Part shown: piece after piece, positions 19,477 to 19,986 of the stretch
Layout of the letters: every line of letters begins with the position of its first letter
Numbering within the stretch: position 1 is the first letter of the stretch
Sequence record: LC473039.1
DNA length: 64,000 bases
Source: Escherichia phage L27
Direction: 5' to 3' (one strand)
Translations under genes and position numbers: made by a program
Notes under the pieces: model-generated
Told to the model about the DNA's origin: nothing
Database searches by the model: none
The model's input: the letters and a program-made list of their open reading frames with translations, nothing else

Positions 19477-19892
19477 GAAACTCTGTAAAATATTCACAAT
19501 AGGTTAAGCCTTTCTTATCTGGTAAATTTTTCAGGTAAGGAGGGCTTTTTCATTTCAGGATTGTGCAGGTAGATTTCTATAGAGAAATCTGTAGAGAAAA
19601 TTTTGAACTCCAAAGAGAAAATTCATTTTCAAACTGTGCAGGTAATCTCCAAAGAGCTTTTTCATTTTCAAAACGTGCAGAGAAAAATCAGGTCGGGCAA
19701 GAAAAATCATTTTAGAATTGTGCAGGTAGATTTTTATAGACAGCCAGCCCAGACAACCTTCCCGCCCTACCACATCTGAAAAGAAAAGTCAAGAAAAAAA
19801 TTTGTAGCGGATTGAAAAATAATTCTTGATTGTAGTTCTGTTTTGCGGTAACCGCGCGCGCCCGTTTCATTACATTTTTGCCAAAAATATTT

Positions 19893-19925
19893 TTAAAATT
19901 TTTCTTGACTATTCGAACGGGTTTT
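19893..19925 (+). promoter_or_regulatory. sigma70-like early promoter (TTGACT-N17-TAGTAT) driving small-gene array
   Basis: CTTGACTATTCGAACGGGTTTTTATAGTAT; followed by 5-prime UTR hairpin and conserved RBS context. Confidence 0.5.
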
Positions 19926-19986
19926 TATAGTATTTGCATCAGACGGGGCGACAAGCCCGATAGCCTTAAACTAGGAGAATCTAAAA

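Follow-up and report, generated by a model that had tools for sequence, protein, structure and literature searches.

A conserved array of four direct repeats in the early region of Felix O1-like phages, a probable protein-binding element

We analysed a window of 64,000 nucleotides from Escherichia phage L27 (sequence record LC473039.1; the window is the whole stretch, read on one strand), in which a 510-bp gap at 19477-19986 carries an array of repeats. BLAST of this gap and of 19300-20300 returned about 290 phage records, nearly all of them Felix O1-like, and places the window in a Felix O1-like myovirus of the Ounavirinae; the nearest relative at the locus is Salmonella phage S19cd (92-94% identity). 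The gap is bounded on the left by a macro-domain gene, which stands directly 5' of the array in all annotated relatives fetched, from four genera, and on the right by a 68-aa open reading frame (ORF) starting at 19987. Within it, four co-oriented direct repeats on the plus strand occupy roughly 180 bp of non-coding DNA (Table 1). They form the best-conserved non-coding element that we found in the early region, present once per genome. We read the array as a cis-acting DNA element that probably carries binding sites for a DNA-binding protein, and give this reading a probability of about 0.8.

The repeated motif is 18-27 bp long and is built around an 18-nt core, TCATTT-N7-GTGCA. Each site is bipartite and asymmetric: the centres of TCATTTT and GTGCA lie 12 bp apart, about one helical turn. 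The second half reads GTGCAG in Escherichia and Salmonella phages and GTGCAT in Erwinia phages. Copy 3 terminates in CGTGCAGAGA, not in TGTGCAGGTA. Exact TGTGCAGGTA occurs three times (0.10 expected) and the 22-mer consensus with up to three mismatches also three times (0.00 expected), all within the array. A sequence-only reading of the window had listed four spaced repeats at 19541, 19614, 19652 and 19697; all four are present in 19540-19980, but these positions are 9-10 nt too low. The interleaved AGAGAAA repeats that it had also noticed are borne out, with four copies in 130 bp (19581, 19593, 19614 and 19679) against 0.03 expected; they are flanks or remnants of the repeat units. Between themselves, the units of the window genome match at 21-30 of 39 positions.

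The motif is confined to this place. We scanned for it with a 27-nt weight matrix at a reporting threshold of 12 bits, the maximum in shuffled sequence being 11.7 bits: the four copies score 36.5-38.5 bits and no other site of the window reaches the threshold. Phage D4, whose complete genome measures 89,439 bp, likewise has the four-copy array alone above it. A strict form of the motif, scanned across 2.9 million viral contigs (IMG/VR), gave 63 loci. Those with at least three copies all lie on contigs of about 51-94 kb, consistent in size with Ounavirinae genomes; the other 30 loci are a single isolated match each, so that no related array was found outside the subfamily in this collection. 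BLAST against 5,426 genomes of E. coli and 72,556 plasmids detected nothing similar to the array, and we rejected a mimic of a host regulatory region or of plasmid iterons on that ground. A general phage promoter motif, of the MotA-box-like middle-promoter kind, was discarded as well, since the motif has no second locus in the genome and no conserved TAnnnT downstream.

Alignments of the gap covered ten phages of four genera and then 31 distinct sequences, IMG/VR contigs included. The array is common to Felixounavirus, Suspvirus, Mooglevirus and Kolesnikvirus, that is, to all four Ounavirinae genera sampled, Erwinia phages among them, with 3-4 copies at periods of 37-45 bp. Across the 31 sequences the repeat cores are invariant or almost so, and the spacers drift. 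The comparison with the Erwinia phages is the most distant one: there the repeat block is the sole part of the 510-bp gap that BLAST aligns. Core columns are 62-67% identical if the absent fourth copy is counted as mismatch, and about 83-89% identical over the three copies present, against 36-38% for the spacers and 43% amino-acid identity for the adjacent macro protein. Conservation in related phages had been proposed as the check on the sequence-only reading, and the outcome favours it: the array is kept in four genera while spacers and neighbouring genes diverge. Judged from these alignments, the repeats are under strong purifying selection.

Spacing is part of the conserved pattern, at 73-75, 39-41 and 45 bp in Felixounavirus, Suspvirus and Mooglevirus. 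Among the Erwinia phages it is 74 and 39 bp in phiEa21-4, and 37, 37 and 39 bp in Coenus and MM7, which keep an intact unit where the window has a decayed one. Since the 73-bp step from repeat 1 to repeat 2 is close to 2 x 37 bp, and since the Erwinia unit lies at this very place, we take the step to hold a decayed unit; ancestrally, units of about 37-39 bp would then have followed one another in tandem, and the present array is probably derived from at least five of them. Copy 4 of the window shares 31 of 39 positions with Erwinia copy 2, more than with any paralogue in its own genome. Orthologous copies being closer than paralogues, the array appears to be old, with each copy maintained individually and not homogenised by slippage. 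Departures from the pattern are few in the 31-sequence alignment: finno-type phages are without copy 2, VpaE1 and three metagenomic contigs have single-base changes in a core, and repeat 2 is point-mutated in two natural isolates.

Table 1 Features of the repeat locus and its surroundings (positions in the window unless stated otherwise; a dot stands where no strand applies)
Feature	Position	Strand	Remarks
Macro-domain (Tk.4-like, 'phosphatase') gene	18691..19476	+	Pfam Macro PF01661, E=1e-7; phrog_335
Intrinsic terminator	19506..19557	+	17-pair hairpin (19506-19547) and T-tract; terminator scan
Repeat 1 core TCATTTCAGGATTGTGCA	19550..19567	+	38.5 bits; extended unit ~19535-19573; found in every genus sampled
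Putative decayed repeat unit	19574..19607	+	AGAGAAA remnants at 19581 and 19593; from spacing and comparison with Erwinia phages
Repeat 2 core TCATTTTCAAACTGTGCA	19623..19640	+	36.6 bits; extended unit 19608-19646
Repeat 3 core TCATTTTCAAAACGTGCA	19662..19679	+	36.5 bits; extended unit 19647-19685
Repeat 4 core TCATTTTAGAATTGTGCA	19707..19724	+	37.0 bits; extended unit 19692-19730
Mosaic segment	19731..19779	.	C-rich or G-rich alternative in relatives, window intermediate (31 sequences)
Conserved block	19780..19844	.	Absent from Erwinia phages; two inverted TTCTTGA(C/T)T elements
GC-rich near-palindrome GCGGTAACCGCGCGCGCC	19845..19862	.	GCGG-TAA-CCGC, then CGCGCGCG
AT-rich tract	19865..19904	+	Half-site-like TTTCATTACA (19865-19874), then UP-element-like CAAAAATATTTTTAAAATTTTT
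Sigma-70-type promoter TTGACT-N17-TAGTAT	19905..19933	+	First promoter of the small-gene cassette array; annotated in ASO1B
Start-associated sequence and ribosome-binding site CTTAAACTAGGAGA	19965..19986	+	Ahead of the ATG at 19987
First cassette gene, 68 aa	19987..20193	+	phrog_5293; unknown function; kept in some relatives, swapped in others
XRE/Cro-type helix-turn-helix protein, 99 aa	L076:43276-43575 (D4, outside the window)	minus-strand nucleotide-metabolism/replication block	Pfam HTH_3, E=3e-11

A motif that is unique, direct, asymmetric and non-coding, and that is conserved amid diverging spacers and genes, points to a protein-binding cis element. The array would offer four sites to one sequence-specific DNA-binding protein. 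As all of them are co-oriented, copies of the protein would line up head-to-tail into one nucleoprotein complex, at one genomic location that follows directly on the terminator of a long plus-strand operon and precedes the first cassette promoter by about 200 bp. Both the binding and what the complex does are inferred. Of the roles offered earlier (origin, regulator-binding array or host-factor recruitment site), the general notion of a protein-binding cis element survives; host-factor recruitment found no positive evidence, there being no similar sequence in E. coli or plasmids.

Coding capacity does not account for the conservation. Annotations of ORFs over the array are inconsistent between records: Felix O1 has ORF14 (8042-8254), FO1a gp14, Tribble Tribble_125, Mordin Mordin_126 on the minus strand, and D4 CDS0131-0133. 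Stop-free stretches exist on both strands of the array because the units repeat, and these small 'hypothetical proteins', lying on differing strands and in differing frames, look like annotation artefacts; Felix O1 'ORF14' has been removed from RefSeq. We rejected a conserved ORF since the spacing changes by +2 from genus to genus, which puts the units out of frame, and since it is the nucleotide sequence that is conserved.

The same holds for a structured RNA, which we rejected on consensus folding of nine diverse arrays (-2.5 and -0.5 kcal/mol, with no consensus structure on either strand). Single-sequence folding of the array gives z-scores of +1.29 and +0.58. A less structured RNA-level role, in which an unstructured transcript would present four protein-binding or decoy motifs, for example as a ToxI-like mimic or a sponge for an RNA-binding protein, is improbable. 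Type III antitoxin repeats measure 34-45 nt, a range that includes the period of 37-45 nt seen here, and the ToxI unit itself measures 36 nt; both ToxI and phage pseudo-ToxI, the precedent for such a mimic, consist of tandem co-oriented units of about 36-45 nt, here likewise in a phage intergenic region. Transcription over part of the array is documented for Felix O1, in which reverse-transcription PCR (RT-PCR) primers for 'ORF14' flank copy 4, one in the spacer that precedes it and the other in the C-rich tract that follows. The amplicon, not strand-specific, peaks at 25 min, and those of ORF13 (macro) and ORF16 at 5 min; since it spans copy 4, some RNA crosses this copy in mid-infection. Against an RNA element stand the strong terminator directly upstream of the array, where ToxI has its terminator downstream, and the lack of a convincing promoter on either strand. 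Covariation was likewise absent on both strands, and no relevant Rfam family matched the array at E up to 10. Unlike ToxI units, those of the array are not near-identical, but diverged and positionally orthologous, with no slippage homogenisation; they have no upstream promoter and no downstream toxin gene. The resemblance to ToxI (GTGCAG..TAGA) is short and not collinear, no ToxN-like gene lies nearby and no plasmid sequence is similar, so that a ToxI or pseudo-ToxI mimic in particular was rejected.

As for the function of a DNA-bound complex, iterons classically consist of direct asymmetric repeats, as in the lambda and SPP1 origins, and where phage non-coding DNA holds a unique direct-repeat array, this has most often turned out to be an origin (lambda, SPP1, and lactococcal and streptococcal phages). 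With at least three co-oriented copies of one asymmetric motif at a single locus, the array resembles iterons in this respect. An iteron-type replication origin, or a part of one, is the single most likely role, though we put it forward tentatively. A putative phage initiator at the array would load the T7-like primase-helicase, and transcription from flanking promoters and the nearby AT-rich tract may help to open the DNA. The phage does have a T7-type primase-helicase and a family A polymerase, and the AT-rich tract and a promoter that is both strong and conserved are no more than 200 bp away from the array. The Felix O1 RNA over copy 4, with its peak at 25 min against 5 min for the genes on either side, and the absence of a reported origin in the literature searched are further points in favour. 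The likeness to known iteron origins (lambda ori with O, SPP1 oriL and oriR with G38P, P1 and F plasmid with Rep) extends to co-oriented asymmetric repeats of about 18-27 bp in one locus, in or beside non-coding DNA, by an AT-rich tract and promoters, and conserved amid spacer drift. Unlike them, the array has no adjacent or recognisable initiator gene, no DnaA or integration host factor (IHF) sites and no unwinding element that clearly stands out, and its units, spaced 37-45 bp apart, are farther from one another and more loosely phased than typical iterons (about 20-24 bp).

Further observations weigh against an origin, and some of them against protein binding altogether. No protein is known to bind the array, and natural isolates tolerate the loss or mutation of one copy, which means that no single copy is essential. 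Pfam and PHROGs comparisons, a non-exhaustive search of the proteome, revealed no Rep, O, G38P or DnaA-like initiator among the products of the nine neighbouring genes, which show a Macro domain only and are otherwise unknown; the same comparisons detected no initiator family in 15 further D4 proteins, from the replication module and elsewhere. The replication genes are 26-30 kb from the array. The only obvious sequence-specific binder found is the XRE/Cro-type helix-turn-helix protein of D4, a candidate for binding the array, yet of a type that usually binds palindromes. Consensus searches of 19477-19986 yielded neither DnaA nor IHF sites, nor any GATC. Within 19400-20000 no 40-bp stretch is less stable than 19865-19904, but the 64 kb contain about 300 overlapping 40-bp windows of lower stability elsewhere, and the least stable and most repeat-dense DNA of the window is on the side of the terminal repeat, at 26.7-27.6 kb. 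GC skew, which in phages follows transcription, has no inflection at 19.5 kb. Lastly, we know of no iteron origin in a virulent myovirus with a T7-type replisome; known phages with such replisomes initiate from transcripts and not from iterons.

The transcriptional setting of the array suggests another use. The upstream terminator runs with its T-tract into the beginning of repeat 1; a terminator is annotated at the equivalent place in the records of Tribble and ASO1B, and its homologue in Felix O1, t13, is the most stable in that genome's terminator table (-21.8 kcal/mol). A phage or host protein on the four sites could act as a roadblock, insulator or looping platform that keeps the terminal cassette apart from the long plus-strand operon, or could switch the promoter at 19905-19933 in the temporal programme. 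We consider this doubtful, and less probable than an origin. The array does lie exactly in the interval from the strongest terminator of the genome to the first cassette promoter, the Felix O1 RNA over copy 4 is timed differently from that of the flanking genes (25 min vs 5 min), the Felix O1 genome paper describes the temporal regulation of the phage as not known, and the phage encodes an XRE-type protein. Arrays of activators or operators, such as Fis at rrn P1 or the direct-repeat repressors of P2 type, similarly place several sites upstream of a strong promoter with UP-like sequence. However, the sites here lie 180-355 bp upstream of the -35 element (about -180 to -355), beyond ordinary operator distance, and this site type occurs once per genome. 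The cassette has at least seven similar transcription and translation units, and the motif recurs neither in the rest of the window nor elsewhere in a complete relative genome, so that it cannot serve them as a shared operator. The operon and the cassette are already kept apart by a strong intrinsic terminator, and asymmetric direct repeats are ill-suited to a dimeric helix-turn-helix repressor. No match to a host factor consensus emerged in this comparison, in which DnaA and IHF were formally tested.

The position of the array relative to the genome ends raises two more possibilities. Direct terminal repeats of 581 bp are present in Pr103Blw (PhageTerm) and in D4 and map to 26434-~27010 of the window; in UAB_Phi87 the terminal repeat is 608 bp, verified with Bal31. 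The array thus lies 7.3-7.5 kb (8.2-8.4%) from the right genome end as measured in D4, and forms the inner edge of a block of small plus-strand genes that reaches the terminal repeat. In phage T5, the DNA-entry stop iss lies at 7.9% and is likewise a non-coding repeat region far better conserved than the neighbouring genes, on the inner side of small early genes transcribed outward. By analogy, the right end would enter the cell first and a membrane-associated or early protein on the array would pause the transfer, so that the terminal ~7.4 kb of small sigma-70-driven genes could be expressed before the remaining genome enters. Fixed genome ends in the three phages above and an array on the inner side of small genes transcribed towards the end agree with such a stop; we nonetheless hold it to be unlikely. 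The T5 region is about 1.2 kb long, with paired DnaA boxes, large inverted repeats and palindromes, whereas the array consists of four direct repeats in 180 bp, the inverted pairs near it being short and outside it. No two-step transfer is reported for Felix O1-like phages or Ounavirinae in the literature searched, and the likeness in percentage may be a coincidence. Full two-step delivery, in which the right 7.4 kb with its dozen promoter-plus-terminator cassettes enters first and an array-bound protein holds the rest outside, is a shade less likely still. If true, no such checkpoint would have been known before outside the T5 group, and this one would follow a different sequence logic that dispenses with DnaA boxes.

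The second possibility, a packaging site (pac, or recognition by the small terminase subunit) or a genome terminus, is largely refuted and the least probable of all. Felix O1 is without a recognised small terminase subunit, and the public record of KhF1 starts 16 bp before repeat 1; other records of the same study, however, begin elsewhere. The terminal repeat sits 6.7 kb downstream of the last array repeat, on which ground we rejected a terminus or pac site at the array, and the dense, 11-bp-phased repeats of its own region are far better candidates. That region, about 1.2 kb of non-coding DNA at 26350-27560 including the terminal repeat, was noted in its own right. It contains dozens of YTGTTAR motifs (CTTGTTAG / CTGTTAAG) in both orientations with an 11-bp period, inverted blocks of them close to both terminal-repeat boundaries, and, at 27.05-27.6 kb, the least stable DNA of the window. 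It is a strong candidate for a terminase recognition site, an end-protection element or the real origin.

In the literature searched, the array appears to be undescribed, one more case of a well-known kind of element. Twelve direct repeats of at least 24 bp are catalogued in the Felix O1 paper, several of them in detail, and those of the array receive no mention; nor do the Mordin, wV8, VpaE1 and BASEL papers mention it. Neither a replication origin, for any of the Ounavirinae, nor the basis of the temporal programme of Felix O1-like phages has been reported there. These phages serve in Salmonella typing, biocontrol and therapy and are now a model (Bas63). Being the best-conserved non-coding element found in the early region and occurring once per genome, the array is a concrete, small experimental target for one or other of these questions. 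Engineering that uses the region as a dispensable insertion site should spare the four cores for the time being.

To the right of the array, conservation is patchy. The mosaic segment is followed by a block in which the two inverted elements supply a TTGACT on the minus strand (plus-strand AGTCAA, 19787-19792) and a TTGATT on the plus strand (19825-19830). Neither has a good -10 in the window; the candidate that would fire leftward from 19787-19792 has a -35 that is conserved except in the Erwinia phages and a poor -10 in the window, and a promoter role for these elements is conjectural. The C-rich tract had suggested a primer model with an R-loop or G-quadruplex, which was dropped because the tract is mosaic and a G-rich replacement is present in many relatives. 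Unrelated C-rich or G-rich alternatives were also seen at the equivalent positions of related phages (L001, L007, L010 and L077).

A GC-rich palindrome had been placed at 19833-19850 by the earlier inspection. It is present and rare in the genome, its patch being one of two places in the 64 kb with at least 15 G/C in 18 nt, but the coordinates were 12 nt too low. Its membership in the conserved element did not stand. The sequence is not conserved, relatives showing GTGGTAGTCGTGCGCACC, GTTAGTTGCGTACACGCG and other variants; the site is GC-rich in three genera, and the alignments reveal no equivalent in Erwinia phages. As both the palindrome and the mosaic tract vary between relatives, we regard them as neighbours of the conserved element and not as parts of it. 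Throughout its changes of sequence (CGCGCGCG, GTGCGCAC, GCGTACACGC, CGCATACGTGCG), the GC patch keeps an alternating purine-pyrimidine, dyad-symmetric character, and could be a hairpin, a Z-DNA-prone tract or a binding site for a dimer.

The promoter said to follow the palindrome is confirmed: in 31 related sequences its TTGAC is invariant and its -10 is TAnnAT-like. Because the right-hand tract and the first gene after the promoter are swapped among phages, the conserved repeats and the promoter serve as junctions of mosaic recombination. The sequence CTTAAACTAGGAGA ahead of the first cassette gene occurs seven times in the window (0.04 expected), always within 19965-25639 and each time before a small gene, and has already been described for phage Mordin. 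Each small-gene cassette has its own promoter and a terminator-containing repeat of about 57-70 bp, such as that at 20203-20259, with further copies near 21979, 22847, 24085, 24648, 25247 and 25576.

Farther along the plus strand, 24 tRNA genes are clustered at 36664-42446, as is typical of Felix O1-like phages. One database record stands out: positions 128510-129694 of GU169904.1 (Staphylococcus phage SA1) hold a Felix O1-like region with 87-88% identity, which suggests that this record is a chimeric or contaminated assembly.

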